This document shows, piece after piece, positions 1 through 33,781 of a DNA stretch of 64,000 nucleotides (positions are counted from its first letter, which is position 1; each line of letters starts with the position of its first letter). The notes below the pieces were generated by a model. That model was not told the origin of the DNA. It worked only from the letters and a program-made list of their open reading frames with translations, and did not search any database. The translations under genes and the position numbers were made by a program. Source of the stretch: Mobula hypostoma (lineage: Eukaryota); NCBI RefSeq assembly GCF_963921235.1, contig NC_086108.1, positions 45,448,001-45,512,000 on the forward strand, in the 5' to 3' direction.

Positions 1-960
1 CTTGCAGACCCCAGTCAGTTCAGATTAGCAACAACATCTCCTCATCAATCTCCATCAGCACAAGTACACCACAAGGCTGTATGCTTAACCTCCTGCTCTA
101 CTCACTTCATACCTATATCTGTGAGGCTAAGCACAGATCCAAGACCATGCTTAAGTTTGTGGATGACAGCACCATTGCTGGCCAAATCAAAGGTGGTGAA
201 GATTAGCATATAGGAGGGAAATAGAAAATCAGCCTGAGCGGTGCCACAACAACCTCTCACTCAACGTCAGCAAAACCAAAGAGCTAATTATTGACTATAG
301 GACAGGAAATCGGACATCCGTAAGCGGTGCTGGCTCGAAGGGCCGAATGGCCTACTCTGGCACCTATTGTGTATTGTCTATTGTCTAGCCCTCTCAAGGG
401 AGCAGCGGTGGGAGAGCCAGTAACTTTAAATTTCTTGGTGTATCATTTCAGAGGATTTGTTCTAGGTCCAGCACTTAAGTCCCATTACAAAGAAAGCACA
501 GCAGTGCCTCTAATTTCTTTGAAGTTTAGGAAGGTTTGGCATGTCATCTAAAACTGACAAGTTTCTATGATGCATGCTGGAAGGTATACTGACTGGTAGC
601 ATCACGGCCTGGTATGGAAACACCAATGCCCTTGAATGGAAAAGCCGACAAAAAGTAGTGAACATAGTACAGTCCAGCAAGGTAAAACCCTCCCTGCCAT
701 TGAGCACATCTACAAGGAACGCTGTTGCAGGAAAGCAGGGCTCCCACCATCCGGACCACACTCCCTTGTCACTGCTGCCATCAGGATGAAGGTACACGAG
801 CCTAAAGTCCCACTCCATCAGGATCAAAGACAGTTATTACCCCTCAACCATCCGGCTCCTGAACTAGAGTGGATAGCTTCACTCCCCTCTAACACTGAGG
901 TCCCAACTGATTCCATATCCTATGGATTCACTTTCAAGGACTCTGAAACTCCTGTTCAGT
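1..960 (+). mobile_element. Rex1/Babar-like non-LTR retrotransposon, decayed RT and C-terminal fragment
   Basis: Broken translation RPQSVQISNNISSSISISTSTPQGCMLNLLLYSL...KFVDDSTI...NLSLNVSKTKELIIDYR, and ORF 574-789 EGILTGSITAWYGN. These motifs are typical of Rex1/Babar RT and C-terminal regions. Confidence 0.8.
325..387 (+). mobile_element. Very short CR1 3' tail inserted in the Rex1 fragment
   Basis: ggctcgaagggccgaatggcctactc...acctatt followed by (tattgtc)n; matches the 3' ends of the CR1 copies at ~10050 and ~14900. Confidence 0.7.
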
Positions 961-1035
961 AGAGCTACTAGGACTTGCTGTTTCAATCCCTATGGTAAAT
1001 CAGCACTCTCGATGTTGGCAGTGGTCTTGGAGTAA

Positions 1036-1795
1036 ACACAAAATAATCTGCAGATGCTGTTGTCAAAGCAACACTCACAATGTGCTGGAGGAACTCAGCA
1101 GGTCAGTCAGCATCCGTTGAAAAGATTAATCGACATTTCGGGCCAAACCCTTCATCAGGATTGAAGGAAGAACTTTGGGGAGGGTTTGAAGAATGCTGGT
1201 AGTTGAAAAAAACAGTAATTTGAAAGACAAAGGGGTGGGGGAGGGGAAGCAGGGAGGTGATTGGCAGGAGAACAATGCGCAGTAGTAGAAGGAGGCGGAA
1301 CTATGAGGGAGGTGATGTGAAAGAGGGATAGGGGAAGGGAGGGGGAGGGAATTACCAGAAGTTGGAGAATTCTATGTTCATACCAAAGGGCTGGAGACTA
1401 CCTAGACGGTATATGAGGTGTTGCTCCTCCAACCTGAGTTTAGCCTCATCATGGCAGTAGAGGAGGCTATGTATGGACATATCTGAATGGGAATGGGAAG
1501 CAGAGTTGAAGTGGGTGGCTACTGGGAGATCCTGTCTGTTGTGGCGGAGAGAGTGGAGGTGCTCGACAAAGCGGTCCCCCAATCAGCGTCGGGTTTCACC
1601 GATGTAGAGGAGGCCGCACCGGGAGCATCGGATGCAATAGATGACCCCAACAGATTCGCAAGTGAAGTGTTGCCTCATGTGGAAGGACTGTTTGGGGCCC
1701 TGAATGGTTGCAAGAGAGGAGGTGTAGGGACAGGTGTAGCACTTACGCTTACAGGGATAAGTGCCAGGTGGGAGATTGGTGGGGATGGGGAGTGG
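1036..1795 (-). mobile_element. Penelope-like element (Neptune-type) 3' fragment: GIY-YIG endonuclease plus pLTR
   Basis: ORFs 1583-1801 and 1352-1582: CKRKCYTC linker, VIYCIRCSRCGLLYIGET (GIY-YIG), RFVEH...VATHF...EEQHLIYRLG. Closely similar to 22726-23457. Confidence 0.9.
1128..1162 (-). ncRNA. Minimal type-I hammerhead ribozyme motif in PLE pLTR
   Basis: Minus strand reads AATC CTGATGA A GGG-TTTGG-CCC GAAA TGTC GATT: catalytic boxes CUGAUGA and GAAA, stem I AAUC/GAUU, stem II GGG/CCC, GUC cleavage triplet. Confidence 0.8.
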
Positions 1796-1974
1796 TGACA
1801 AGGAGGGAGGATCATCATTAGGGTCATCAGGTGGGCACCCTCCTTCTTTGACGTTTCATTGATAAGCCCACAACGTCTCCAGAGGGCTCAACGGTGCTAC
1901 CTGGCGTCCCAGATACACCCCCCTCAGTTCCATACCCTCCTGTCTTCATTATTGCTTCTTAATCTATTTTCATT

Positions 1975-2150
1975 TTGTACTTGCATAATTAGTTGTCTTT
2001 TGCACATTGGTTGTTTGTCTGTCTTTGTAGCTTTTCATTCTGTTGTGTTTCTGTGTTTATTGTGAATGCTTGCAAAACGGGAATCTTGGACTTGCACATG
2101 ATGACATGTACTGTATGCATTTTGATAATGAATTTACTTTGAACTTTGAA
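1975..2150 (+). mobile_element. LINE-derived 3' tail fragment (Rex1-like or non-autonomous)
   Basis: Ends ...gataatgaatttactttgaactttga; a similar copy lies at ~55430-55620. Confidence 0.5.
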
Positions 2151-2424
2151 GTGCAGGTGTCGTATTTTAGCAAATTATACCAGGGTAGGAATGGTGGGAC
2201 CCTTGGGAGTGTTATGGAACAGAGGGATATATGAGTAGAAGTACCTAGTTTGCTGAAAGCAGTGTGTAACACCAGTGCAGTGCTTGTCATATTTCGTGTA
2301 ACTGGTCGCCATACACTTTATGAGAAAATCAAATTACGTAGTACTATACCAGATGCTAGTGGGCCATCAAAAGCTCTAGGTATCGAAAAGAGGTAGTGAA
2401 TAGAAAAGGCACACTTCTGGAGGT

Positions 2425-3379
2425 AAATTTTATTTATTAAAAAGAAGCAATATATACAAAATATTTACATGAGTAAGAACAATTCAAAATTCCAACATTC
2501 TGTCTTAGGTTCTAAATCTCAGATATCACCGAAAACCAAATTCCTTTCTAGATAGAATCAGTGATATTCATTAGAATAAGGTTTATTACTCAAACTTCTC
2601 TAACTAATTAGATCAAGTGTTATTCCCTATTTAAATGTTTATAGATTTTATTTATCCCTAGTTAATGAGGAAACTAATTGAATTCCTATTTTTAAGTATT
2701 ATGGTTAACCTCAGTTTCAGTTCAGGTCAGTATGTCTACAAATTCAAACTCAATCCCACCCCTCAAAAAAACATACAGCTTAACTCCTTTCACCACAATT
2801 CTCCAACATCCCAGCTTTTAAACAAAGTAAATCTTATTCAGTAACTTATCAAAGTCTATGCAAAAATAATCAGTTCTTTCAGAAAATCAAATTCAAATGC
2901 TTTGAATGAGAAATGAAGTTCTGCATCCAAACGTATTAAATCCTCTACGTCATTAAACATTTTGTTCCCGCACCGTTTCTTCAATCCTGGCTGGCTCACC
3001 ATCTTGTTTCTTGGTTCGTTGGATGAAATGGTTGATCATCCACAGAAAGTCGATTCACGAAACTTACACAACAAAAAAAACTGATCTATATGCAACAGGA
3101 TTACAATCTGTAAGTTCTTATACGCATTCTATTTTCTATTGTAAAATAACTCAATATCACACTGTCATTTTCAAACATCTCTCCGTTACAACATTACCGA
3201 ACACTCAAATTAGAACAGTAGAAGTGTTTTGACTCCCCAGATCCCTTGGTATGATTTAACAGAACTAATTCCCGGCTCCACAGTACAGATCTTGGACACT
3301 GCTCTCTGCTGGTGTTCATTATAGCCGTAGCTTCAATAAATCTTTTTTCGATATTGTCTCTCCTCCAGGCGGGCTTATA
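2425..3379 (-). other. Candidate terminal exon / 3' UTR of a minus-strand transcript
   Basis: Acceptor ...ctctaccctatttattggaaattctcag|TAT, open frame YKPAWRRDNIEKRF...SVR* to 3194. Non-repetitive and relatively CpG-rich, with a minus-strand AATAAATAAA near 2430 after an AU-rich tract. Confidence 0.35.
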
Positions 3380-3599
3380 CTGAGAATTTCCAATAAATAG
3401 GGTAGAGATACTAACTACTAATTCCACTTTTAACAGTTTATATCTCTAGTTCGTTTCTATAGCTGGCTGCGTTTCTGTCGCTTCCCACACCTGCGTCAGC
3501 CACACTTGACTCTCACATTGCTTTTTTTTCCATGTTCTCTTTTTTAAAATTCAGTAAACCTAGTTTTCATCCCTTCACAGGTAGAGCTTTCTAACATTA

Positions 3600-7515: not shown

Positions 7516-8142
7516 CAGACATCCCACTCTGGAAAAACTCATTTCAGGGAGGTAGCATCATCAATTTGCGGGAGACTTCCGGGAGAGGTGGGATGTCTGT
7601 AATAGAGTAGCTCCTTAGCAGCTGGCCAGCTAGTTTAAATAATGTTAGCTATGCTAATAAACGAATGACACCTGTTAAACTCACCTCAACATGTCTTTTA
7701 CAGTCTTAACCCACCATGGGCAATAGAAAAGTCACTGTTGCAAACAGTGCAACGAGCAATACTGTCATTATTTTGACCCCTATTAGGCAGGGGTACACTT
7801 TAGTGTAGTCTGGGGTGACGTACGTTTTATATTTTTTTTGGAACACTCTGCCATGGTGTGCTCTTGCTCGCGCACGCTCTCTCTCTCTCTCGTGGTTGCT
7901 CGCACGCTCTCAAGCGCTCTCACTTTCTTTCTCTCTCGCTCGCACGCTCCCTTGTCTTCGCTCTTGCTCTCTCTGTCGCGCGTGCTCTCTCTGGTGGTCG
8001 CTCTCGCGCTCTCTCTTGCTTTTCTCTCGCTCGCTCTCAAAAAAATTGATTTCCGTGACATTGTATATAATTTGCGGGCATCAGGGAGCCACTATTAATA
8101 TGCGGGAGACTCCTGGAAGTTCCGGGAGAGGTGAGATGTCTG
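7516..8142. mobile_element. Non-autonomous DNA transposon (MITE) with 12-bp TIRs and 6-bp TSD
   Basis: TSD CCTTCA at 7510-7515 and 8143-8148; TIRs CAGACATCCCAC / GTGAGATGTCTG. Removing it rejoins gag as GKPS-ELMDHML. Internal CT/CG microsatellite at 7860-8040. Confidence 0.85.
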
Positions 8143-9629
8143 CCTTCAGAGCTAATGGACCACATGCTGTCTCTCCTGGGGAAATCACTATCCTTGTTTT
8201 ATTTTTAAAGGACACTTCATGCAGCAAATGCCTGATCCAGTTTGCGTAGCCCTTGCTAGTGCACCCGTGAAGGACTATAGGGAGCTTGCTAAAATGATTG
8301 ATAGTCTACAGTCAGCCAGGCATCAGACATCATTCCTCCTCCTTTTTCTAACTCAATAAGCCGTGTCAGCAAGGCCCCCAACGTGCCTGTGAAATGGATG
8401 ACGCCGGACCTGTGCTTTTACCATACTCGCTTTGGTAGGAACGTGAGGAAATGCCAACCGCCTTGCAGCTTCGACAGCACATGTGCATTGGGACATCAGA
8501 GGTCTGTGAACGCAACGGGTTCCAGCTGCCAGGGTCGCCTACTGCTCATCACAGACACCCTCTCAGGGCAACGTTTCCTGTGTGACACAGGTGCTCAAGT
8601 GAGCGTGCTGCCAGCATTGCCTATTGATGAGAAGGCAAAGAGCGATGAAACCTGGCTGGAGGCTGCCAACTGAAGCTCAAGCCAGACCTATGGGATACGA
8701 TGGATGACACTCTGTTTCAGTGGGCGACGTTATACACGGGACTTTGTCCTGACTAAAGAGGCTGGAACTCTGCTCGCTGCAGATTTCCTCTGTCCCCAAG
8801 GACCATTAGTCGATCTTAAGAACTGCTGGCTTGTGGATATCAAGGAGTCTGTTCCTTCAGTAAGTTCCCCTCAACGACTCTGTCAGGTGTATGCACCACC
8901 GAATGAGAGTTCACTCAATGCTGGGAGAATTCCCAGTCCTCACCAAGCCCACATTCTCCATCACAGTCGCAAAACATGGGATTGAGCACCACACTCCCAC
9001 AACTGGCCCGTCAGTCCGTGCCCGCGCGCATAGACCGGACCCAGAAAAGCTGGCAACTGCGAAGGCTGAGTTTGCCAGCATGGAAAGACTTGGAATTATA
9101 TGGCGATCGAGTAGCCCCTGAGTTTTACCCCTCAATAGGGTTCCGAAGTCCGATGGTGTTTGTCGCCCATGTGGTCGTTACTGACACCTTAATGAGGCCA
9201 CCACCCGCAATCACCCGGTCCCACATATTCAAGACTTTTTGGCAGGTTTAACGTATAAGTTGATTTTTTGCAAAGTCGATCTAGTTAGGGGCTACCAGCA
9301 AGTGCCTGTGTGCTTGGTGGACATAACCAAAACAGCCGTGATAACCATGTTTGACCTTTTTTGAGTTTCTGCGCATGCCGTTGAGGCCACACACACAGGG
9401 GCTGATTATATCGGCATGGTAGATGACCATGTTACTGACCCAGAGGTCCAGGCTTACTGATCAGCAGTCACGGGCCTGTGGTAAGTTCAGGAAAGCTGCT
9501 GCATGTCTTCTGTGCGATGTCTCAACTGGTCACCTTCACCCCATTGAATCCTCCAACTAGAGACAGACTGGTTTTGACTCTCGCATCCAGGCCAGAAGGC
9601 CTCACAGAAACTGTTTGCACTAAAGTTTG

Positions 9630-10099
9630 TCTGGGATGGCAGGACTTTCATATGATGAAAGACTGGATGAACTAGGCTTATACTCGTTGGAATTTAGAAG
9701 ATTGATGGGGGATCTGATGGAAACATATAAAATCTTCAAGGGATTGGACAGGCTAGATGCAGGAAGATTGTTCCCGATGTTGGGGAAGTCCAGAACGAGG
9801 GGTCACAGTTTGAGGATAAAGGGGAAGCCTTTTAGGACCGAGATTAGGAAAAACTTCTTCACACAGAGAGTGGTGAGTCTGTGGAATCCTCTGCCACAGG
9901 AAACAGTTGAGGCCAGTTCATTGGCTATATTTAAGAGGGAGTTAGATATGGCCCTTGTGGCTAAAGGGATCGGGGGTATGGAGGGAAGGCTGGTGCAGGG
10001 TTCTGAGTTGGATGATCAGCCGTAATCATACTGAATGGCGGTGCAGGCTCGAAGGGCCAAATGGCCTACTCCTGCACCTATTTTCTATGTTTCTATGTT
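9630..10099 (+). mobile_element. Young CR1 3' fragment inserted in Gypsy integrase
   Basis: GLSYDERLDELGLYSLEFRRL...FFTQRVV and a (tttctatg)n tail; nearly identical to the 3' ends of the 12841 and 34128 copies. Confidence 0.92.
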
Positions 10100-10558
10100 T
10101 AAAGGACTGCATGATTGAACTGCAGCCTGTGTGCGGTGCCAGCGGGTAAAAATTAACCATCATATCCAGGCGCCATTGGCACCTTCTGAGGTCCCTGAGT
10201 GATGGCTTGACCATGTCAATGTGGATCTTGTTGGTCCTTTTCCCCACCCCCCCCACCCAAGGTTCCAAACACCTCCTTACCACAGTAGACCATACCACCA
10301 GGTGGCCAGAGGTTGTCATTTGTAATGTATTTGGTTGTAACCTCTTTGGTTACAATCTATTTTGGTCACACGATCTATTTTGGAACCTAATAAGAATCTG
10401 TTGTACAATCTATTTGGCTGTAATCTGTTCAGTTGCTGGATTGATCTGTGTTTAATGAATCAACCAATTCGTTTGTGATCTGGTTGGTTGCTGGATCAAT
10501 CTATACGGTTACAATTTATGAATATTTTGAGATCATAGTCAAAGTGATAAAATGAATG

Positions 10559-11240
10559 TTAGATTAGATTAGATTATGAGGACACTCAGTCCTTGTTTAT
10601 TGTCATTTAGTAATGCAAGCATTAAAAATGATACAATGTTCCTCCAGTATGATATTCCATAAACAGAAGACAGACCAAGACTAAAACTGACAAAAACCAC
10701 ATAATTATAACATATAGTTACAACAGTGCAAAGCAACACTGTAATTTGATAAGAGCAGACCATGGGCACAGTAAAAAAAAGTCTCAAAGTCCCGACAGCC
10801 CATTATCTCACACAGACGGTAGAAGGAAGAAAACTCTCCCTGCCATGAGCTTCCAGTGCCGCAAACTTGCTGATGTAGCATCCTGGAAGCACCCGACCAC
10901 AGTCTGACTCTGAGTCCGTCCAAAAACTTCGAGCCTCCGACCAGCCCTCTGACACCGAGCACCGAGGGCCATCTCTGTCAAGCGCTTTGATCCCGTCCCG
11001 GCCGCCAAGCAACAGGCAAAGCTGAGGATTTGGGGCCTTCCCCTCCGGAGATTCCGGATCACACAGTAGCAGCAGCAGTGAAGCAGGCATTTCTGAAGTT
11101 TCTCCAGATGTTCCTCTGTGCTCTCACGTCTGTCTCCATCAAATCAGGATTGTGCACGGCACCCTACTTGACAGATTACAGATATTCATCACCGGAGAGG
11201 ACGCACGTGCTGCGTCATGCCGCCATCTTCTCCTCCTCCC
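10559..11240 (-). mobile_element. Non-autonomous LINE-derived element
   Basis: Minus strand starts gggaggaggagaagatggcggc (AAGATGGCG internal-promoter-like start) and ends in a (aatct)n tail; no coding similarity recognised. Confidence 0.6.
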
Positions 11241-11687
11241 GAATATACAAATTAAGATTGAAACAAAACAATGGCCAATATCATGAAATGTACACAGAGC
11301 TCTTATTTGAATAAAACACCTTAGTTTGATAAAATTAATGAAAAGATCTGAATAAAAAATACTAACAATATTAAGATCCAGGAAATGCCTATGGGAAAGG
11401 AAATGGCTGCTACTGACTTAGTAGGAATAAGACTACGTGGTCAGTTTGATCAAAAGTATGAGCGAATGAGAGAGTTAATGAGTTGACCAAATACTTCTAT
11501 TAATTGAAAGAAACGTGAAAAATTATAAACTACAAGAACAGCATGATAAAGATACTAAAAAGTTTAAAGAGCAAGTATTTACAATTACCAAATGAGTAAA
11601 AGAACAACATGGAAATTCAATTGAACTGCATTGTCCAGCGCTCAGAAACAAACTAAAACAAAATGGAAAAGTGCAGCTGCAACTTCA

Positions 11688-12842
11688 AGTGTACGGTCCT
11701 GTTGGTGACGGTTCCCATGATGCTGCTAGTGTACGGTCCTGCTGGCGCTGGTTCCGGTGATGCTGCTAGTGTACGGTCCTGTTGGCGACGGTTCCCATGA
11801 TGCTGCTAGTGTACGGTCCTGTTAGTGACGGTTCCAGCTGCAACTTCAAGTGTACGGTCCTGTTGGCGATGGTTCCAGTGATGCTGCTAGTGTACGGTCC
11901 TGTTAGTGACGGTTCCAGTGATGCTGCTAGTGTACGGTCCTGTTGGTGACGGTTCCAGTGATGCTGCTAGTGTACGGTCCTGTTGGCGACGGTTCCAGTG
12001 ATGCTGCTAGTGTACGGTCCTGTTGGCGATGGTTCCCGTGATGCTGCTAGTGTACGGTCCTGTTGGCGACGATTCCCGCGATGCTGCTAGTGTACGGTCC
12101 TGTTGGCGACGATTCCTGTGATGCTGCTAGTGTACGGTCCTGTTAGTGACGGTTCCAGTGATGCTGCTAGTGTACGGTTCTGTTAGTGACAGTTCCCGTG
12201 ATGCTGCTAGTGTACGGTCCTGTTGGCGACGATTCCTGTGATGCTGCTAGTGTACGGTCCTGTTAGTGACGGTTCCAGTGATGCTGCTAGTGTACGGTTC
12301 TGTTAGTGACAGTTCCCATGATGCTGCTAGTGTACGGTCCTGTTGGTGATGGTTCCCGTGATGCTGCTAGTGTACGGTCCTGTTGGCGACGGTTCCAGTG
12401 ATGCTGCTTGTGTACGGTCCTGCTGGTGACGGTTCCCGTGATGCTGCTAGTGTACAGTCCTGTTGGCGACGGTTCCAGTGATGCTGCTTGTGTACGGTTC
12501 TGTTAGTGACAGTTCCCGTGATACTGCTAGTGTACGGTCCTGTTGGTGACGGTTCCCGTGATGCTGCTTGTGTACGGTCCTGTTGGTGACGGTTCCAGTG
12601 ATGCTGCTAGTGTACGGTCCTATTGGTGACGGTTTCAGTGATGCTGCTCGTGTACGGTCCTGCTGGCGACGGTTCCAGTGATGCTGCTAGTGTACGGTCC
12701 TGTTGGCGACGGTTCCAGTGATGCTGCTAGTGTACGGTCCTGTTAGTGACGGTTCCAGTGATGCTGCTAGTGTACGGTCCTGTTGGTGACGGTTTCAGTG
12801 ATGCTGCTCGTGTACGGTCCTGCTGGCGGCCGTTCCCATGAT
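11688..12842 (+). repeat. 40-bp minisatellite, left arm (~29 units)
   Basis: Unit TGATGCTGCTAGTGTACGGTCCTGTTGGTGACGGTTCC(A/C)G, head-to-tail with no spacers. Confidence 0.97.
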
Positions 12843-14962
12843 TTAAAGATCGCATGGATGAACTACAATTGTTCATGCCAGTTTGGCAAAAGAATAAATC
12901 AAGGAAGGTAGTGCACCCGTGGCTGACAAGGGAAATTAGGGATAGTATCAATTCCAAAGAAGAAGCATACAAATTAACCAGAAAAAGTGGCTCACCTGAG
13001 GACTGGGAGAAATTCAGAGTTCAGCAGAGGAGGACAAAGGGCTTAATTAGGAAGGGGAGAAAAGATTATGAGAGAAAACTGGCAGGGAACATAAAAACGG
13101 ACTGTAAAAGCTTTTATAGATATGTGAAAAGAAAAAGATTGGTTAAGACAAATGTAGGTCCTCTACAGACAGAAACAGGTGAATTGATTATGGGGAGCAA
13201 GGACATGGCAGACCAATTGAATAATTACTTTGGTTCTGTCTTCACTAAGGAGGACATAAATAATCTTCTGGAAATAGTAGGGGACAGAGGGTCCAGTGAG
13301 ATGGAGGAACTGAGGGAAATACATGTTAGTAGGGAAGTGGTGTTAGGTAAATTGAAGGGATTAAAGGCAGATAAATCCCCAGGGCCAGATGGTCTGCATC
13401 CCAGAGTGCTTAAGGAAGTAGCCCAAGAAATAGTGGATGCATTAGTGATAATTTTTCAAAACTCGTTAGATTCTGGACTAGTTCCTGAGGATTGGAGGGT
13501 GGCTAATGTAACCCCACTTTTTAAAAAAGGAGGGAGAGAGAAACCAGGGAATTATAGACCGGTTAGCCTAACATCGGTGGTGGGGAAACTGCTAGAGTCA
13601 GTTATCAAAGATGTGATAACAGCACATTTGGAAAGTGATGAAATCATCGGACAAAGTCAGCTTGGATTTGTGAAAGGAAAATCATGTCTGACGAATCTCA
13701 TAGAATTTTTTGAGGATGTAACTAGTAGAGTGGATAGGGGAGAACCAGTGGATGTGGTATATTTGGATTTTCAAAAGGCTTTTGACAAGGTCCCACACAG
13801 GAGATTAGTGTGCAAACTTAAAGCACAGGGTATTGGGGGTTAGGTATTGATGTGGATAGAGAATTGGTTGGCAGACAGGAAGCAAAGAGTGGTAATAAAC
13901 GGGACCTTTTCAGAATGGCAGGCAGTGACTAGTGGGGTACCGCAAGGCTCAGTGCTGGGACCCCAGTTGTTTACAATATATATTAATGACTTGGATGAGG
14001 GAATTAAATGCAGCATCTCCAAGTTTGCGGATAACACGAAGCTGGGCGGCAGTGTTAGCTGTGAGGAGGATGCTAAGAGGATGCAGGGTGACTTGGATAG
14101 TTTAGGTGAGTGGGCAAATTCATGGCAGATGCAATTTAATGTGGATAAATGTGAAGTTATCCACTTTGGTGGCAAAAACAGGAAAACAGATTATTATCTG
14201 AATGGTGGCCGATTAGGAAAAGGGGAGGTGCAACGAGACCTGAGTGTCATTATACACCAGTCATTGAAAGTGGGCATGCAGGTACAGCAGGCGGTGAAAA
14301 AGGCGAATGGTATGCTGGCATTTATAGCAAGAGGATTCGAGTACAGGAGCAGGGAGGTACTACTGCAGTTGTACAAGGCCTTGGTGAGACCACACCTGGA
14401 GTATTGTGTGCAGCTTTGGTCCCCTAATCTGAGGAAAGACATCCTTGCCATAGAGGGAGTACAAAGAAGGTTCACCAGATTGATTCCTGGGATGGCAGAT
14501 CTTTCATATGATGAAAGACTGGATGAACTAGGCTTATACTCGTTGGAATTTAGAAGATTGAGGGGGGATCTGATTGAAACGTATAAAATCCTAAAGGGAT
14601 TGGACAGGCTAGATGCAGGAAGATTGTTCCCGATGTTGGGGAAGTCCAGAACGAGGGGTCACAGTTTGAGGATAGAGGGGATGCCTTTTAGAACCAAGAT
14701 TAGGAAAAACTTCTTCACACAGAGAGTGGTGAATCTGTGGAATTCTCTGCCACAGGAAACAGTTGTGGCCAGTTCATTGGCTATATTTAAGAGGGAGTTA
14801 GATATGGCCCTTGTGGCTAAAGGGATCAGGGGGTATGGAGGAAAGGCTGGTACAGGGTCCTGAGTTGGATGATCAGCTATGATCATACTGAATGGCGGTG
14901 CAGGTTCGAAGGGCCGAATGGCCTACTCCTGTACCTATTTTCTATGTTTCTATGTTTCTATG
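12841..14962 (+). mobile_element. Young 5'-truncated CR1 LINE (ORF2 RT), inserted in the minisatellite
   Basis: ORFs 12854-13843 and 13847-14863 separated by one TAG: KSPGPDG, NYRPVSLTS, YLDFQKAFDKV, GVPQGSVLGP, KFADNTK; (tttctatg)n tail. Confidence 0.97.
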
Positions 14963-15734
14963 ATGCTGCTAGTGTACGAATCTGTTGGCGACGGTTCCAG
15001 TGATGCTGCTAGTGTACGGTCCTGTTAGCGGCGGTTCCAGTGATGCTGCTAGTGTACGGTCCTGTTAGCGGCGGTTCCAGTGATGCTGCTAGTGTACGGT
15101 CCTGTTGGTGACGGTTCCAGTGATGCTGCTCGTGTACGGTCCTGTTAGCGACTGTCCCAGTGATGCTGCTCGTGTACGATCCTGTTAGCGGCGGTTCCCG
15201 TGATGCTGCTAGTGTACAGTTTTGTTAGTGACGGTTCCCGTGATGCTGCTAGTGTACGGTCCTGTTGGTGACGGTTCCCGTGATGCTGCTAGTGTACGGT
15301 CCTGTTGGTGACGGTTCCAGTGATGCTGCTAGTGTACGGTCCTGTTGGTGACGGTTCCCGTGATGCTGCTAGTGTACGGTCCTGTTGGTGACGGTTCCCG
15401 TGATGCTGCTAGTGTACGGTCCTGTTGGTGACGGTTCCCGTGATGCTGCTAGTGTACGGTCCTGTTGGTGACGGTTCCCGTGATGCTGCTAGTGTACAGT
15501 TTTGTTGGCGACGGTTCCTGTGATGCTGCTATTGTACGGTCCTGTTGGTGACGGTTCCCGTGATGCTGCTAGTGTACGGTTTTGTTAGCGACGGTTCCAG
15601 TGATGCTGCTAGTGTACGGTTTTGTTAGCGACGGTTCCAGTGATGCTGCTAGTGTACGGTTTTGTTAGCAATGGTTCCGGTGATGCTGCTAGTGTACGAT
15701 CCTGTTGGCGGCGGTTCCCGTGATGCTGCTAGTG
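14962..15734 (+). repeat. 40-bp minisatellite, right arm (~19 units)
   Basis: Same unit as the left arm, resuming in register after the CR1 tail. Confidence 0.97.
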
Positions 15735-16039
15735 ACGTTATTGCTGGCGCTCCACCCTGGCACACACTTACTTCTGAAGCTGCGCCCGAGGAATTGCAGC
15801 CATATTCAAACAGTCGCCGGAGACAGTAACTCCAAGGAATTACAGCCAGTGATGGGTAGTCTTCCTAGACAGCAAAACATCTCAGCTCGGAGGAACTGCA
15901 GGATCGACATGGCATGGACTCTAGAAGCCCCTTAGCCACTCAAGTGAGGACACCAGAGGATGGGAAAATCACATTGACAGCTATGTCACAGCTTGCTCCA
16001 ATAAAGACCAAGGCAGTGAAGGTTTTAGATAAACATTTG

Positions 16040-16850
16040 AAAGATGCATGACATGTCAGAAAACAGTTCCTGGAGCAGCAGAAAAGCTACCACAGTTAAG
16101 TGCTCCTGCCCCACCTAGTCCATTTTTACATACACAAGTGGACTGCACTTCTTAACCAAAATGTCAAGGATACTCAGATATACTGGTAATAGTGGACAAG
16201 TTTTCAAGATGGGTGAAAACTAGTCCAGCAAGGACAGCCACCTGCCACAGACACAGCAAACAAGGACTGTATTCCTAGCTGGGGATTGTCATGTCACATC
16301 AACTCTGACCATGGAACACATTTCACTGGGAGTGTTTGTCAGGATTATGTTGACTGATGAACATTGAATGGCCTTTTCATAGTCCACATCATCCAGAGTC
16401 ATCAGGACAAGTCAAAAGAATGAATGGAATCATCAAACAACAACTGACCAAGTATCATGAGGAAGCTTTGCCGTACCGGTTCCTATGATCTTGTGTATCA
16501 TCAGAGCAACCCCAAACAAGAAAACTAAACTAAGTCCATTCCAGGTGGTAAAAGGATGCCCTGTGCGTCTGTTGGAAGCCCTCGATCTCAGAGAGGCTGA
16601 TATGCACATTATGGCAGACAGTTTGGTTAACTCAAGCTGTACAGTCTGCTACTCATCGTTTCAGCTACTTGGAGTAACCCAACAGGAAGACACACCCTGA
16701 TGCCTGATGAGTGGCTCCTGATTAAGAAACCACATAAGGATCCACTGGGAGCTGGGTGGTTAAATCCTTATCAACTGCTATTAATTACTAATTTGGTGGT
16801 GAGAGTAGAAGGTAAAAGCAAGTGGATACATGCTAGCCTCTGCAAATGAG
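16040..16850 (+). pseudogene. pol: Retroviral integrase remnant
   Basis: CMTCQK; PSPFLHTQVD; ILVIVDKFSRWV; INSDHGTHFTG; HHPESSGQVKRMNGIIKQQLTK; RATPNKKTKLSPFQ; PYQLLLITN..VRVEGKSKWIHASLCK (GPY/F-type C-terminus). Confidence 0.9.
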
Positions 16851-16995
16851 CTAAAGTGGTGCCCAACAAGGACATCAAATGTTGTGGTTAATGTGCTGGT
16901 AACTTCTTGCCCACAGTACCTACACTGCTAGGTTACAGTGAGCAGGTCACCAACCAGCCAGAAGACTTCGAGCAAGTTGACAATGACTGGACATT

Positions 16996-19810
16996 ATGAA
17001 GTTTATTCCCATATTATTTGTTGTTGTTATCGTTTTGCCACTTCTCCCTACTCGCAATGTGCCAATTGAAATGACTCAATATATACTTGCAAGTATCACA
17101 TGAATTTGCTGATGCTGTTAACAACTCTAGCTTTGGGTATGTCAATATATACTGCACACTTCAATATATTCACCAAAGCTTGGCATTTCTTCAGATTAAG
17201 AACAAACATGCACTCTCTTAATTAAACATTCCAGCAAGGGCGATGTTAACATTATTCCTATGATTCATTATTCTCAAGGGATGCATTAGTATACAATGAT
17301 CATAACCCCCCCGACACACCATCTTGAACTAGATCATTTATGTAAATATAATCAGCATAATTTAGAGAATCACAGTATATTTGACCCTATTTATGTTTTA
17401 TCTTGAGATATCTCTATATCTGCACCTATTGTTCATGACAATGCCAGTAAATTTTTTCATGCGTTCACTATAAAAGATACCTTTTGCGTGAGTTCAGAAG
17501 GTACCATTCCAGTTGGACATACTTCATGGAATTACAAACTACATTATCCTAAATTGGGTAATTTTCATTGACGATCAGTAAAATATTACAATTCAACAAA
17601 GGTCCGGTCAAATAATAAGAAATGGAACAACATGTATTTCATGTGGGGAATTGAGCCTAAACTTTGTCCACGTAATTCTTTCGAATCTTGATATTTATCC
17701 TCTGACTTTCCTGCCACAAGACATACACATACCTTATAGAAACTATAGAAAACCATAGAAACTACAGCACAGAAACAGGCCTTTTGACCCTTCTTGGCTG
17801 TGCCGAACCATTTTCTGCCTAGTCCCACTGACCTGCACACGGACCATATCCCTCCATACACCTCCCATCTATGTATCTGTCCAATTTATTCTTAAATGTT
17901 AAAAAAGAACCCGCATTTACCACCTCGTCTGGCAGCTCATTCCATACTCCCACCACTCTCTGTGTGAAGAAGCCCCCCTAATGTTCCCTTTAAACTTTTC
18001 CCCCCTCACCCTTAACCCATGTCCTCTGGTTTTTATCTCCCCTTGCCTCAGTGGAAAAAGCCTGCTTGCATTCACTCTATCAATACCCATCATAATTTTA
18101 TATACCTCTATCAAATCTCCCCTCATTCTTCTATGCTCCAGGGAATAAAGTCCCAACCTATTCAACCTTTCTCTGTAACTGAGTTTCTCAAGTCCCGGCA
18201 ACATCCTTGTAAACCTTCTCTGCACTCTTTCAACCTTATTTATATCCTTCCTGTAATTTGGTGACCAAAACTGAACATAATACTCCAGATTCGACCTCCC
18301 CAATGCCTTATACAACCTCATCATAACATTCCAGCTCTTATACTCAATACTTTGATTAATAAAGGCCAATGTACCAAAAGCTCTCTTTATGACCCTATCT
18401 ACCTGTGACACCACTTTTAGGGAATTTTGTATCTGTATTCCCAGATCCCTCTGTTCCACTGCACTCCTCAGTGCCTTATCATTAACCCTGTATGTTCTAC
18501 GTTGGTTTGTCCTTCCAACGTGTAATACCTCACACTTGTCAGTATTAAACTCCATCTGCCATTTTTTAGCCCATTTTTCCAGCTGGTCCAAGCCCCTCTG
18601 CAGGCTCTGAAAACCTTCATCACTGTCTACTACACCTCCAATCTTTGTATCATCAGCAAACTTGCTGATCCAATTTACCACATTATCATCCAGATCATTG
18701 ATATAGATGACAAATAACAATGGACTCAGCACTGATCCCTGTGGCACATCACTAGTCACAGGCCTCCACTCAGAGAAGCAATTCTCTACCACCATTTTCT
18801 GGCTTCTTCCATCGAGCCAATGTCTAATCCAATTTACCACCTCTCCATGTATACCTAGCAACTGAATTTTCCTAACTAACCTCCCATGCGGGACCTTGTC
18901 AAAGGCCTTACTGAAGTCCATGTAGACAATATCCACTGCCTTCCCTTCATCCACTTTCCTGGTAACCTCCTCGAAAAACTCCAATAGATTGGTCAAACAT
19001 GACCTACCACGCACAAAGCCACGTTGACTCTCCCTAATAAGTCCCAGTCTATCCAAATGCTTGTAGATTCTGTCTCTTAGTACTCCCTCCAATAACTTAC
19101 CTACTACAGACGTTAAACTTACTGGCCTATAATTTCCCGGATTACTTTTTGATCCTTTTTTAAACAATGGAACAACATGAGCCACTCTCCAATCCTCCGG
19201 CACCTCACCTGTAGACAGCGACATTTTAAATATTTCAGCCAGGGCTCCTGCAATTTCAACATTAGTCTCCTTACCTCCTGACTCCAGAAGTAAACAAGAC
19301 CTTTCAGGAGGAGATTGTTTTGCATCAATTTTATTCTCATTTTATGGTGTTACAAGAAGTATAAAAGTGATTAAAATGTTGCTGCAGCCTTGTAAAAAGT
19401 AAACAATGACATTGCTGATGCCTTGGGAAAAGTATCAATGGAAATGGTTACCAAGCATAAAAGGGTTCTTCAAAATTGTACATATTTGGTCTTCTCCTAG
19501 CAGTTAAGGGGGGAACATGTACAGTTATTGGCAAGGAGTGTTGTTCTTACATACCTGATGAGTCTGAAGACATAACTAATTTGGGTGATCATATTTGTAA
19601 AGGAGCAGCTAAAATATGTCAATCTGATGGATAGAATTTCTTTAATTGGATTCACTTAAATCTCAGAAGCTACGGTTACTCAATATTATGAGTCATATTA
19701 TTCATACTTACACGGCTTATGATAATTTACATCTTTTTCACTTGCTTAAAGGCAATCGTTAATAGAATAGTTCGAATTTGCATGTGTCCCTACTAATCTG
19801 CTGAATCATA
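16996..19810 (+). pseudogene. env: Gamma-type envelope remnant (SU and TM), split by a CR1
   Basis: Signal-like MKFIPILFVVVIVLP; frameshifted (C)WVC-like motif near 17135; furin-like RSK(Q/R)D at ~19285-19300; ISD-like VLQN..; CX6CC (CTVIGKECC, 19518-19544); hydrophobic anchor near 19690-19745. Confidence 0.85.
17737..19268 (-). mobile_element. 5'-truncated CR1 LINE (second subfamily) inserted in env
   Basis: ORF 17917-19224 with NYRPVSLTS, MDFSKAFDKV, KFADDTKIGG; CCTTA repeated at 17732-17736 and 19269-19273. Confidence 0.95.
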
Positions 19811-20077
19811 ATATAATCATGAATATTTTAAAGAATTCATATACATACCCTTTGATATTAATAGTTTTTCGATTATTTTACTCATAACGTAGATATCACA
19901 ATTTTATTTGCCTTGGAATTTCCAGATTTAATTAGTCTAAACATGTGATTTAGAATTGGTGTGTGTGGGGGGGGTGTTGATTATTGGATCCAACTGTTTA
20001 ATTCTTATATTAGACTGTTTAATTGTTATTTTCTTTGCAGTTTAACAATTACCTGCTTGTATTTTGAGTAATATACA

Positions 20078-20204
20078 AGTCACAAACAAGAGAAAATCTG
20101 CAGATGCTGGAAATCCAAGTAATACAGGAGGAACTTAGCTGGCCGGGAAGCATCTATGGAAAAGCGCACAGTCGATATTTGGGCTAAGACCCTTCGGCAG
20201 GATC
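20078..20204 (-). mobile_element. Short PLE pLTR fragment with degenerate hammerhead
   Basis: aaatctgcagatgctggaaatc...cagtcgatattttgggctaagacccttcggcagg. Confidence 0.7.
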
Positions 20205-22335
20205 TAACTGCTTATTATGTCCCTAGTGGCTGTACAAACTATATTTCCAGAAAGCTCTGGAAACTTCTTTGTTCTGCATTATTTGGATAGTGCTTTTTCA
20301 TTGGTTAACTTGGTACTACAGTATTTGAATAAGTGCTTTCTCATTGGTTGAATCTTATCTACAAATTTGAAAGGAATCTTTCTTATTTACAGGTATAAAA
20401 TTGCTAAACACAAAGCAGTGCCACTTTAATATTCTTAGCATCTTAGTCCCTTGACTTTAAGCTTTCTGCTTCTAGCTTAGACCATAAGACCATAAGATAT
20501 AGGAGCAGAAGTAGGCTATTTGGCCCATTGAGTCTGCTCTACCATTCAATCATGGGCTGATTCAATTCTTCCAGTCATCCCTACTCCCCTGCCTTCTCCC
20601 CATGCCCTTTGATGCCCTGGCTAATCAAGAACTTATCTATCTCTGCCTTAAATAATCCTGATGACTTGGCCCCAACAGCCACTCGTGGCAACAAATTCCA
20701 TAGATTTACCACCCTCTGACTAAAGTAATTTCTCCGCATCTCTGTTCTAAATGGACGTCCTTCAATCCTGAAGTCAGGCCCTCTTGTCCTAGACTCCCCT
20801 ACCATGGGAAATAACTTTGCCATATCTAATCTGTTCAGGCCTTTTAACATTCGGAATGTTTCTATGAGATCCCCCTTCATTCTCCTGAACTCCAGGGAAT
20901 ACAGCCCAACAGCTGCCAAGCGTTCCTCATACGGTAAACCTTTCATTCCTGGAATCATTCTTGTGAATCTTCTCTGAACCCTCTCCAATGTCAGGTTATA
21001 CTTTCTAAAATAAGGAGCCCAAAACTGCACACAGTACTCCAAGTGTGGTCTCATGAGTGCCTTATAGAACCTCAACATCACATCCCTGCTCTTATATTCT
21101 ATACCTCCAGAAATGAATGCCAACATTGCATTCACCTTCTTCACCACCAACTCAACCTGCAGGTTAACCTTTAGGGTATCCTGCACAAGGACTCCCAAGC
21201 CCCTTTGTATCTCTGCATTTTGAATTCTCTCCCCATCTAAATAATAGTCTGCCCATTTATTTCTTCCACCAAAGAGCATGACTATACAATTTCCAACATT
21301 GTATTTCATTTGCCACTTCTTTGCCCATTCCACTTTGCCCATATCTAAGTCTCTCTGCACGGTCTCTGTTTCCTCAACACTACCTGGTCCTCCACCTATC
21401 TTTCTATCATTGTAGCCACAAATCCATTAATCCCATAGTCCAAATCACTGATATACATCATAAAAAGCAGCGGTCCCAGCTCTGACCCCTGTGGAACTTC
21501 ACTGGTAGCCGGCAGCCAGCCAGAATAGGATCCCTTTATTCCCACTCTCTGTTTTCTGCTGATTAGCCAATGCTCCACTCATGCTAGTAACTTCACTGAA
21601 ATTCCATGGGCTCTTATCTCGCTAAGCAGCCTCCTGTGTGGCACCTTGTCAAAGGCCTTCTGAAAATCTATCTACTGCATCTCCTTTGTCTACCCTGCTT
21701 GTAATTTCCTCAAAAAATTGCAGTGGGTTTGTCAGGCAGGTTTTTCCTGTCAGGAAACCATGCTGGCTTTGGCCTACCTCGTCATGTGTCTCCAGTATGC
21801 CGTAATCTCATCTCTAACAATCGATTCCAACAACTTCCCAATCACTGATGTCAGGCTAACAGGTCTATAGTTTCCTCTCTGCTGCCTTCCAACCTTCTTA
21901 AATAGCAGAGTAACATTTGCAATTTTCCAGTCATCCGGTACAATGACAGAATCTATCGATTCTTGAAAAATCCTTGTTAATGCCTCCACAATCTCTCCAG
22001 AACCCAAGGGTGCATTCCATCAGGTCCAGGAGATTTATCCACCTTGAGACCATTAAGCTTCCTGAGCACCTTCTCAGACCTAATTTTCACTGCCCTAACT
22101 TCTCTTCCCTGACACCCTTGAATGTCCGCTATACTGCAGATGTCTTCGACTGTGAAGGCTGATGCAAAATATGCATTCACTTCCTCTGCCATCTCTGCAA
22201 CTCTCATTACAATATCTCCAGTGTTATTTTCTATTGGTTCTGTATCTACCCTCCACTCTCTTTTACCCATTATATACTTAAAGAAGCTTTTAGTATCTTC
22301 TTTGATATTAGTCACCAGGTTCCTTTCATAATTCA

Positions 22336-28996: not shown

Positions 28997-31900
28997 AATT
29001 GCTGACCAGTATGAACCTGAGTATCCGCGAATATCACCAATTGCACCGACAGTAGTGAGATGACGGAACTCAGAGGAAGGGAGAGAGACAGCGAGAGGAA
29101 AGAGTGAACCAGTATAGGGAAGGCTGTCACGGATGCTAACACAGGGATGTGTGAGTGACAGAGCACAGTACACAATGAGAAACGCATAAATAGCAAAGCT
29201 AAAGTGAAAATAATGTGACGTTGGCCTTAGTCAGGAAAATTGGTGAATTTGATAGTGCTAATGAGAACTGGGGATCATATATTGAGAAAGTTTATCTATA
29301 TTGTAATGCTAATGATGTGGATGAAGAAAAGAATATATCCACACTTCTTAGTTGAATGGGTGATAAAACATACAGTCTCTTGTGCAATTTAGTAACTCCT
29401 GAAAAGCCAGCAGGCAATATGTTTGACAAAACTGTTAAAATTTTTCAAAATCACTTGAGCCCAAAACAGCTAGTAATAGCTGAGAGATTTAGATTTTACA
29501 AAAGGAACCAGTCAAAGGATGAAACCATTTCTAAATACATTGCAGAACTGCACAAACTTTCCCAATACTGTGACTTTGAAGATGGAATTTCTGATGCATC
29601 AAGAGGTAGGCTTTTATGTAGAACGTATAGTCATAGCACTCAAAAGAAGCTGCTGTCAGAAAGAGATCTCACCTTAGAACAGGCATCAATCATTACAATA
29701 TCAATGGAGATAGCAGCAAAAGATGTGTCAGAACTACAGAAAAAAGTGTAGAATGTGAAATGCTCAAAATGTCTCTGAATAGTGTAAAAAGCCAAAAATG
29801 TCATCAATATGACAAATCCTCCCATGATGCAAATGACTGTTGGTTCAATGAAAAAGTTTGCAGAGTGTCACAGACAAGGTTACATATAGAGAGTCAGACA
29901 AAAAAAAGCACAGCCAAAGAGTAAAACCACATAGAGTGAAAAGTTTCATACACAAAACTAAACAAATGCATAGTGACTGAATGCGAAACACTGAATCAGG
30001 CAACACAGTCTGTCAAAGGTGAGCTGTCATAGCTAGAACTGCATAGCATTACTGAAGCATATCGCAAAATCATCTGAATCACAACAGATGTTTCTGGTGT
30101 CACACTGAAAATGGAGCTGAATACAGTGACAGCTTTATCTGTAATTTCAGAGGATGACTACAACAGACTGTTTTCTAAGCTACTATTAGAAAAGACCTCA
30201 GTGATGCTAAAGATCTACACAGGCAAAAAAGTGTCTCCCAAAGGCAAACAGAAAGTGAATGTCATGTATGGAGGCAAAAGGCAGCAGTTAGAACTTGATG
30301 TGTTGAAATGTGGAGGGCCAGCACTTTCGGACGTGAATGGTTGTGAAAAATCTAACTAGACTGGAACGCAATCATAGCTCTCAATGTATCATCAACAGGC
30401 AACTGCAGCCCAAATGGTAGCACTAACCAGAGACTGGCACGGCTGCTTAACGCTAATGAGAAGGTGTTCAAAGGCATGAAGCTCAGAAATGAACTGGATG
30501 AAGCAGCAACACCTAGATTCCATAAAGTGCGTCCAATGCCATACACACTACATCCTAAACTGGATGCTGAACTTCAGAGCTTGGAGACATCTGGCATTCT
30601 CTCCAAGGCTGAGTGGAGTGATTGGGCCAAGACCATTGTCCTGGTGATCAGGAAAGGGAAGGCCAGAGCTGTTCGCATGTGCAGGCACTTCAAAATGAGC
30701 ATCAACCCTATGCTGCATACTGTGCAGTACCCCCTGTCGTGAATAGAAGATATTTTTGCATCTTTGGCAAGTGGGGAGAGGTTATCAAAGGTTGACTTTT
30801 CACAAACTTATCTACAAATGGAGATTGAGGAATCAAGTAGGAAGTTCCTCACAATCAACATTCATAAGGGACTGTTTCAGTGTAATTGTCTCATCTTTGG
30901 CATTGTAGCAGCTCCAGCAATTTGACAAAGATCAATGGACCAAATGCTCCAAGATATCACAGGAAAATAATGTTACCTTGATGACATTATTGTGACTGGC
31001 AAGAATCTTGATGACATTATTGTGACCTCCAGAACCTTGTTAAAGTTCTTACCAGGCTGAGTGAGTATGGTCTGCATGCAAAGAGACAAATAAGAGTTTT
31101 TCAAGAATGAAATCTCATATTGTGGACATGTCACTGACAAGCATGGCTTACATAAGTCACAAGAGAAGATTGAAGCAGTGTGCAGGCACCCAAACTGAAA
31201 AATCTGTCGCAATTCAGGTCATACTTAGGTCTTGTAAACTACTGCCACAGACTTCTCCCAAATTTTGCCACAGTACTGCACCCATTGAATGTACTGTTGC
31301 AGATAGGAGCAAAGTGGGAATGGTCAGAAAGATGCGGAAAAGCATTCAAGGAAACAAAGAGACTAATCACGTCAGTTGAATGGCTCACCCATTATGCCCC
31401 ATCTCTGCCCATCAGACTGGTGTGTGATACGTCCCCTTATGGCATTGGTGTCATTTTCTCACTCACTATGAAAGATTGATCTGAACATCTGAATGCATTT
31501 GTGTCAAGATCACTGATGAGCGCAGAACACAACTACGCACAGGCTGACCAAGAAGCCCTTAATCTAATGTGGGGAATAAAGAAGTTCCACCACTACCTCT
31601 ATGGACTAAAGTTTACTCTAGTGACAGACCAACAGCCCCCGTGTCCATTTTTAATCCCAGGAAGGGAATCCCAGTGATGTTTGCTACCAGGTTGCAACAT
31701 TGGGCACTTTAACTAGGAGCCCACTCTTATAACATAGCGTTCAAGTGTACCAAACAACAGAGCAATGCTGATGGCTTGTCATGTCTTCCACTGTTGGCAA
31801 CTGAAGAAGAAAAGTCTTCATTCTGTGACCGAGCAGAGGTGTTCCACACAGCATTGGTGGACTAGCTGCCAGTAACAAATTCCGAAATACAAGGAGAAAC

Positions 31901-33781
31901 ATAAAATGATCCAACATTGTCAAAAGTCTATGGTATCACCCCGCAAGGATGGCCAACTCATTGTAATTCTACGTTTCCAGAGTTCTCAGTGAGATGAGAC
32001 CAGCTATTGGTATGTCAAAGCATATTGATGTGTGGATCTTGTGTTGTCGTTCCCTCTAAGCTGAGCACCAGAGTTGTTAGAGAATCTGCATGAAGGACAC
32101 CCAGGTACAGTTAAGATGAAGAGTGTCACACGGAGCTACGTGTGGTGGCCAGGAATAGATAGACAGATTGAAGACATGGCCAGAAGCTGTTCAGAATGCT
32201 ACAAGGTTCAAACTGCACCCCAACAGGCAGCTTTATTCCCCGGGAATGGCTGTCTTCACCGTGGCGAAGAGCACACATTGACTTTGCTGGGCCATTCATG
32301 GACTCCAAGTTTCTGACTGCTGTGGATGCTCATTCAAAGTGGCCGGAGGGCATACCAATGAAGTCAACCACATCAGAAAAGGCTGTCTCAGCTCTGAGAA
32401 CTACCTCCTCCAGAAATGGCTTACCTGAACAAACTGAATGACAACGGACCACAATACACCTCAGAGGAGTTCAGACTATTCATGAAGAAAAATGGCATCA
32501 AGCATTTCAAGTTAGCACATCACCACCTAGAAACAAATGGGTTGGCTGAAAGGTTTGTCCAACGCATTCAACAGGTCCATTAAAGCTATGGACAAGGAGG
32601 ACACTTCTGTTCAGCATAAGGTGGACAAGTCCCTTTTTGTGTATCGGAATTCTGTTCATGCGATGTCAAGTCAAACACCTGCAATGCTGTTCATGAGCAG
32701 GAGTCTGAGATCTGGCATAGACCTCCTGAAACCAGACCTCCTGTACAGAATAAACAGTTCAGCCAGTTGCCAAGTAAATCAACAAGGAAGTCCTAGCGAG
32801 TGATTACCAAGAAGACAAGTGGACACCCGGTAGGATAGCTACAAGAACAAGACTACTGATGTATGCAGCGGATGTTGGAGATCATACATACATGTAGATG
32901 TCATATGGACCAAATACTGGATGCCCAGCCAAAGAACACACCTGGGTTGTCTGCATCCGACAAGTCGGACACATTACATCAACCGGTCTTACCTCTCAGT
33001 GATGGTCACGTCACCAACAGCAATGTGACACCTGCAAGAGAAAGCTGTCTTTGGCAAGACACCTGCCAAACCTAATGCCACTCCACAGGTCCGGGGGCAC
33101 TATCCTAAGAGAAACAGCACCACCAAAAAGAATGGATCTTTAGGATAGTGAAGGTAGTTACAGACTGTTATTTTAAAAATATCAAACAAACGCTGCTATT
33201 GTGAAATCCTGTTTATTTGAGCGTGGTCTATTAAAAGGAAATTGAATGTTTTGTTTGTAATGCCCTGGTTCATATTTTTTACTGTTATGCTGTTTGTATT
33301 TCTTTTAGCAGTTCTGTAAGAGCAGTCTGTTCTGTTTTCAGCTTGTTTGGGTTATTGTTGAAAATAAGAGATGAGGAGAAATGTGTGCCATCCAATCAGG
33401 ATGGTCGAATTAAGGGGAGGTTTCTCTGGTGAGGGACACAAAGGTAGGGCTTGGATCTTTTGTTTGAGAGGAGATGAAGAGGGAAGACGCGGGAGAGAAG
33501 AGGTCATAGGATTCTATGCCACGTGGGACCGTGATTCGATGAAGCTAGGAGCAAGATCAATTGAGGATTGGTGACTATGGAGAAACTTTGAGCCCCAACT
33601 TGTGCACATTTGACTGTTTCATTAAAACGGGCCCTTTTCTTTTTGTTCTTTTCTTTACTAACCCTTTAATCAAATTAAGATTCATAAATATAATCTTTCA
33701 ATCGTATGCAGTGTACTGTCTGTTACTCTGTGGCACTAATTTGTAACAGGGTAATGAATTATACAGCATCCACACAAACAG

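Follow-up and report, generated by a model that had tools for sequence, protein, structure and literature searches.

A CR1-split 40-bp minisatellite within an internally deleted class I endogenous retrovirus, probably grown from a gag linker

Minisatellites are described as originating from sequence between flanking repeats of 5–10 bp, and also from LTR elements (PMC6947457). The model of Haber and Louis 1998, as conveyed by PMC6947457 and PMC3389668, starts from a unit between short direct repeats that grows by slippage, conversion and unequal exchange. The human survey in PMC3389668, to the extent of the account used here, counts 7,276 TE-derived arrays, with 1,597 ERV-associated and 300 flanked by direct repeats of 5–20 bp; known models explained about 6% of the TE-derived arrays, and most of the unexplained ones have only two units. 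In mouse, Ms6-hm is a single-locus array inside a MaLR LTR (Kelly 1994, as cited in PMC6947457), and soybean Gmr9/Ogre retroelements carry minisatellites in thousands of element copies (PMC3305785, in the portion available). Going by PMC3389668 and PMC6947457, ERV-derived minisatellites with short flanking repeats are already well described. Fish class I ERVs have been described as well (PMC6001957 and PMC4422223, in the portions available). Within the literature searched, with most subscription papers outside its scope, we found no fish ERV for which a minisatellite derived from gag has been reported.

Here we describe an array in a stretch of 64,000 nucleotides of Mobula hypostoma DNA, hereafter the window. 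Like the human arrays of PMC3389668, it overlaps an ERV and has expanded locally; unlike them, as far as that survey describes them, it has 48 units, appears to derive from internal coding sequence of a class I ERV of fish type, and contains a CR1 that divides it. It shares with Ms6-hm its place as a single-locus array inside an LTR element, but the mouse array (PMC6947457, at second hand) lies in an LTR and this one in gag-like sequence. As in Gmr9/Ogre (PMC3305785, same portion), the minisatellite is inside an LTR retroelement, but the flank here is near single-copy. The unit also lies between short direct repeats, as in the Haber and Louis model as relayed by PMC6947457 and PMC3389668; however, the exact repeat is 4 nt, below the 5–10 bp (or 5–20 bp) given there, an imperfect partial unit continues it on the right, and unit 4 preserves another switch, made at a 3-nt match that overlaps. 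Our preferred reading, which we consider probable, is that this locus-specific minisatellite grew from the variable linker of an ERV gag.

Tandem Repeats Finder, applied to the window, returned period-40 arrays at 11688–12826 (28.5 copies) and 14961–15734 (19.4 copies). A unit-by-unit parse gives 29 unit starts in the left half (11688–12842, plus strand; 28 complete units, then 34 nt of unit 29) and 19 in the right half (14961–15734, plus strand; the remainder of the cut unit, 19 whole units and a closing AGTG). The array thus comprises 48 units of 40 bp, head to tail, with 89–91% matches, and has units of tens of bases in tens of copies, as a minisatellite should. A 13-nt unit motif matches 45 times in the window (0.67 expected by chance), always within the array, and neither self-BLAST nor a motif scan of the 64 kb found the unit elsewhere. 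An earlier interpretation made from the letters alone (the sequence-only reading) had proposed about 29 plus 19 tandem 40-bp units, split in register by a CR1 and bounded by short near-repeats. The repeat finder, the parse and the CR1 junctions agree with this, and the bounding repeats are seen as a 4-nt AGTG present at both array ends, 11688 and 15731. The uniformity of the units needs correction: the period is 40, but unit 4 has 41 bp and carries a copy of the left flank that had been missed. Viral contigs contain 18 isolated matches to a 15-nt motif of the unit, none extending beyond 20 nt; we read them as chance.

The copy lies in unit 4 (11808–11848, plus strand). The left junction at 11674–11705 (plus strand) consists of 14 nt of flank and 18 nt of unit 1, and these 32 nt recur exactly at 11835–11866: unit 4 runs to a 3-nt CAG, where it switches to the 14 nt that end the left flank. 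This shows that a rearrangement happened at the locus, beside the left flank. Either a short conversion tract or an early duplication of 41 bp, through a second, overlapping microhomology, would account for unit 4 itself. We rejected the idea that it belongs to a recent 161-bp duplication, because units 1–4 are no closer to units 5–8 than other units are (4, 6, 3 and 2 differences of 30; left-unit mean, 3.6 of 40). At the opposite end, the right flank opens at 15735–15752 (plus strand) with what looks like a diverged partial unit. Its best anchored score, 19 against unit 2, was equalled by 3 of 120 GC-matched random 36-mers; the left flank resembles the unit end at chance level beyond the shared 4 nt (62/120). 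Assembly of the unit from both flank ends therefore finds support on the right side only, and we did not retain it. A hairpin-driven origin was likewise rejected, since none of 200 shuffles folded worse than the unit strand. A contig of organism A, possibly the source sample, matches 15651–16000 without a single difference, which argues against an obvious assembly error at the right junction.

The element that divides the array, a 5'-truncated CR1 LINE at 12841–14962 (plus strand), has one in-frame stop (13841–13843) and a tail of three TTTCTATG. It combines 5' truncation, an RT-like ORF, an 8-nt repeat tail and a short or absent target duplication, which are hallmarks of CR1 LINEs, the family to which we assign it. 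An inverted copy at 34129–36246 is 97.7% identical and extends further 5'. The insertion overlaps the unit by 2 nt at its 5' end and by 3 nt at its 3' tail, with a target duplication of 0–5 nt, and because these end bases are common to CR1 and unit, the array resumes in register. A young, 5'-truncated CR1 landed inside unit 29 in register. Two unit haplotypes are common to both halves; since they occur on both sides of the CR1, the array was already diverse when the element arrived.

Units differ on average at 3.6 of 40 positions in the left half, 4.2 in the right half and 4.0 between halves. In the right half, 5 of 18 neighbouring units are identical, four identical neighbours lie in a row at 15331–15490, and distance rises from 3.3 at lag 1 to 5.0 at lag 10; in the left half a two-unit block recurs at a 120-bp step. 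Identical neighbours, lag-dependent distance and the repeated block point to local duplication. Divergence of the halves is borderline overall (permutation test, p 0.058). One column differs between them (Fisher test, p 0.007, uncorrected, among 22 variable columns), and a few variants are restricted to one half (for example, 5/19 versus 0/29 at one column).

The array is also rich in CpG. Its observed-to-expected ratio is 0.88–1.0, versus 0.13–0.50 in the ERV parts and 0.33 for the window. The suggestion that every unit keeps 2–4 CpGs holds for 45 of the 48, the full range being 1–5. TG or CA variants occur at every CpG position, and the simplest reading would be that turnover outruns decay; protection from methylation is a possible alternative. 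With a 40-bp period, each plus-strand frame of the left half contains 20–30 stops, so the expansion postdates any need for gag at the locus, although such a post-gag expansion could also have taken place in a deleted donor element. The array shows no sign of function, and none is implied.

Downstream of the array and on the same strand lie an integrase and an env, both broken, so that the array, with its gag-like flanks, sits within a transposable element. The integrase (core and C-terminal domain; 16031–16850, plus strand) matches Pfam rve (E 0.0044) and MLVIN_C (E 0.00029), neither reaching its curated cut-off, and foamy-virus integrase at E 1.6e–07. It has 1019 relatives at E ≤ 0.001 and a tblastx match at E 1e–72 to L019, a metagenome locus; a word-based protein search with the integrase read-through found no match. 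The best-scoring named relatives are teleost elements, and others come from elephant shark, a skate and a lizard. A gamma/epsilon-type integrase with MLVIN_C, albeit one whose MLVIN_C score is below the Pfam cut-off, assigns the element to class I. In carrying MLVIN_C and in having its best relatives in teleosts it is like the fish class I (epsilon-like, clade Mu) ERVs, as far as PMC6001957 and PMC4422223 describe them; that clade is a tentative placement, and RT is absent from this copy. The env (16990–19780, plus strand) is split by another CR1 (about 17726–19340, minus strand) and matches the env of L019 weakly (E 0.009). Its transmembrane part contains, near 19520–19545, what we take to be a CX6CC motif.

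The element is internally deleted: most of the capsid, PR and RT are missing, with neither PR nor RT mapping at the locus, and integrase and env follow the array. Neither self-BLAST nor a direct comparison of leader and 3' region revealed an LTR pair, and the 5' LTR appears to be lost. The ERV family is represented by 1829 contigs in organism A and 1732 in organism B, about half of them below 90% identity. Between 46 and 53 family contigs exit the window upstream of 15973, 37–45 do so downstream of 16021, and 21–23 join at 16031; because contigs leave or join the window there, 15973 and 16021/16031 are deletion junctions. These junctions are about 50 bp apart, and the first is spanned by contigs of both organisms. 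The short piece between them (15973–16021, plus strand), common to many family copies, is probably an RNase H remnant: compared with about 160 proteins, it scores best locally against the two nearest relatives, at their RNase H end (raw score 38), and an unrelated match in another frame reaches an equal score.

Several other repeats occur in the neighbourhood. At 8200–10320 lies a broken element of Gypsy type, with protease, RT and integrase-like text (RT match E 2e–11) and an interrupting CR1 fragment (9631–10100). It breaks off at about 10320, the point at which the leader-like region of the ERV starts. We found neither the ERV 5' LTR nor a continuation of the Gypsy-like integrase, which suggests that a deletion joined the two. 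Degenerate 15–18 bp tandem repeats (Tandem Repeats Finder) occupy the leader position at 10320–10560. The stretch from there to the gag-like flank, 10561–11240, resembles an inserted repeat and has no second copy in the window. At 19968–20460, a G-run followed by TG may represent the polypurine tract and 3' LTR; a short interspersed repeat breaks this stretch at about 20077–20210. An unrelated, degenerate CT-rich tandem repeat at 7923–8020 likewise has period 40 (2.5 copies), and a second broken Gypsy-like element covers 29200–32500, with RT, RNase H and integrase matches at 30428–32453.

Whether the unit came from gag depends on the flanks. The left flank (11241–11687, plus strand) is an A-rich, broken, gag-like 5' region at the matrix/coiled-coil position; the right flank (15735–15972, plus strand) is a broken, near single-copy sequence resembling a gag linker and the start of capsid. 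As a reference for comparison we used P0177, a related fish-ERV family found through pol that keeps gag. On its gag, 11506–11637 matches the coiled coil (residues 94–135; 19 of 300 shuffles score as high), and 15786–15866 matches residues 182–210 at 41% identity (12/300) in the frame starting at 15693. Taken as a colinear pair, with only 11500–11687 of the left flank entered, the flanks score 78, a value reached by none of 300 shuffles and none of 200 real-segment pairs. The array edges then fall at residues 151 and 166, and the gap of about 15 residues is about one unit long.

This signal is weak. It is fragile and depends on the relative used: near-identical family members give 0/300 (P0177), 0/80 (P0178), 15/80 (P0186) and 8/80 (P0204), and for three unrelated gags 4, 66 and 79 of 80 shuffles score as high, the 4/80 belonging to a lizard gag at another position. 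Pfam returned no gag hit for either flank; blastx of either against 245 relatives gave nothing below E 0.16, and a word search of proteins with the left-flank peptide found no match. A capsid profile built from 11 relatives ranks the right flank first of 5100 tiles, at noise level (5.8 versus 5.6 bits). It places the frame of the right-hand peptide quoted in the sequence-only reading on top, a lead that came from a protein within the profile. Comparison with L019, the one locus compared of 38 metagenome loci, showed no match to the flanks; the right junction matched no metagenome contig, and no related locus was found in viral contigs.

The continuous frame claimed across one unit is not confirmed: the quoted peptides can be read on each side, but the right-hand one (frame of 15692/15722) scores at chance level, with 255 of 300 shuffles scoring as high against the related gag. 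Birth from gag is partly supported, since the array lies in an ERV and its flanks weakly match consecutive gag parts with about one unit between them. Judged from such comparisons, gag origin of unit and flanks is likely but unproven.

Two related fish ERVs carry in-frame internal deletions. In L019 (2690–5839) the 5' end of gag runs directly into the RT connection, RNase H and integrase, and env is open; in the P0177 family a whole gag is joined to RNase H and integrase. Both may be non-autonomous forms whose frames are open. A predicted protein, P0170, joins a Bicaudal-D domain to ERV RNase H and integrase and is possibly a prediction or assembly chimera.

Sequencing depth bears on how many copies of flank and unit exist. 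Over 15789–15857 of the right flank, depth was 38, 15 and 19 in three runs versus about 16, 6 and 9 for a single contig, that is, about 2–2.5x in all three covering runs. Summed depth is 15–47 over the right flank versus 500–3400 over the integrase, and at 80% identity most ERV family copies do not have the right flank, which means that the genome may no longer contain the founding state. For the unit, the ratio of summed to single-contig depth is roughly 36 (run X1), 66 (X5) and 75 (X6), figures that do not give copy number, with X5 and X6 from one sample. Such values suit a single array with tens of units better than thousands of units or a large dispersed family. A single-unit version was not seen among the well-supported loose ends listed, and contigs covered the array's last two units. 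The bounding direct repeats fit the proposal that the array was amplified from one unit.

We also compared a second organism, the stretch being represented in each organism by contigs of one sample. Organism B has an orthologous contig over 15713–16001 (12 differences in 289), and three orthologous pieces together differ at 37 of 1233 sites, or about 3%. It combines high unit depth with a loose end at the right flank made of a further unit, and so holds tandem units at the flank. The array most likely predates the split of organisms A and B. Run X9 (organism C, share 0.05, 65 million letters) covers integrase and env pieces only; its zero depth over the units and right flank carries no weight at that size.

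We next weigh these results against other origins. The unit could be foreign to gag, a short GC-rich piece or short array copied in during break repair and then expanded here, with the shared 4 nt as the target duplication of the inserted piece. We regard this as unlikely. Composition speaks for it, the units being T/G-rich (A 13%) and the left flank A-rich (A 44%), as do the 4 nt that are the sole exact sharing at both ends, the right gag match lying outside the frame of the quoted read-through, and the loose ends without a single-unit copy. On the other hand, the flank matches leave about 15 residues of the related gag, close to one unit; the right flank, similar in GC to the units, opens with a diverged partial unit; and depth gives no hint of a large donor family. 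An older origin is improbable, too: a deleted, non-autonomous ERV lineage would already have had the array, or a shorter version, and brought it along on insertion, leaving only later growth to this locus. The host element is internally deleted, the related fish ERVs P0177 and L019 show that deletion can spare the gag 5' end, integrase and env, and mobile elements carrying minisatellites are known from soybean Gmr9 (PMC3305785) and LTR12 (PMC3389668), as far as those accounts go; but a right flank at about 2–2.5x single-contig depth means that no large family carries it. Formation at a deletion or repair junction of non-adjacent pieces, with flanks that were never neighbours and are not both gag, is very unlikely: gag homology is weak and at least two other deletion junctions lie within 300 bp of the array (15973 and 16021/16031), but both flanks find their place on a single gag, in the right order and spaced as expected (0/300).

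Under growth from the gag linker, we infer that the array was born in place, along the following course. A class I ERV would have integrated and lost most of its capsid, PR, RT and parts of RNase H and integrase. A segment of about 40 bp between short imperfect direct repeats would then have been duplicated, by slippage or unequal exchange of the Haber–Louis type. A second switch, at an overlapping CAG match of 3 nt, would have copied the left junction into unit 4; its anatomy is plain in the array, and its place in the order is our suggestion. Local duplication and conversion, whose pattern is visible among the units, would have expanded the array to about 48 units and kept renewing it, a renewal that may hold CpG high despite TG/CA variants at each CpG position. 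Finally, as its junctions show, the young CR1 landed in register within unit 29 of an already diverse array.

A more ambitious version of this history is tentative, and we hold it to be doubtful as a whole. In it, the locus would be a complete, datable birth record: two founding microhomology duplications (40 and 41 bp) kept across a species split, a CR1 that serves as a time mark and after which the halves drifted apart, and turnover that outran methyl-CpG decay and left a CpG-rich island in a dead provirus. If this were true, comparing the two organisms and individuals would yield the rate of unit turnover relative to CpG loss directly, in a lineage for which our literature searches turned up no comparable case.

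Overall, the array reveals no new mechanism. It exemplifies a known route of repeat origin with an unusually readable anatomy, and the mechanism put forward in the sequence-only reading is plausible and partly supported. The beginnings of minisatellites are only partly settled, and a locus with readable founding junctions, a junction copy and a CR1 time mark offers a teaching and test case for them.
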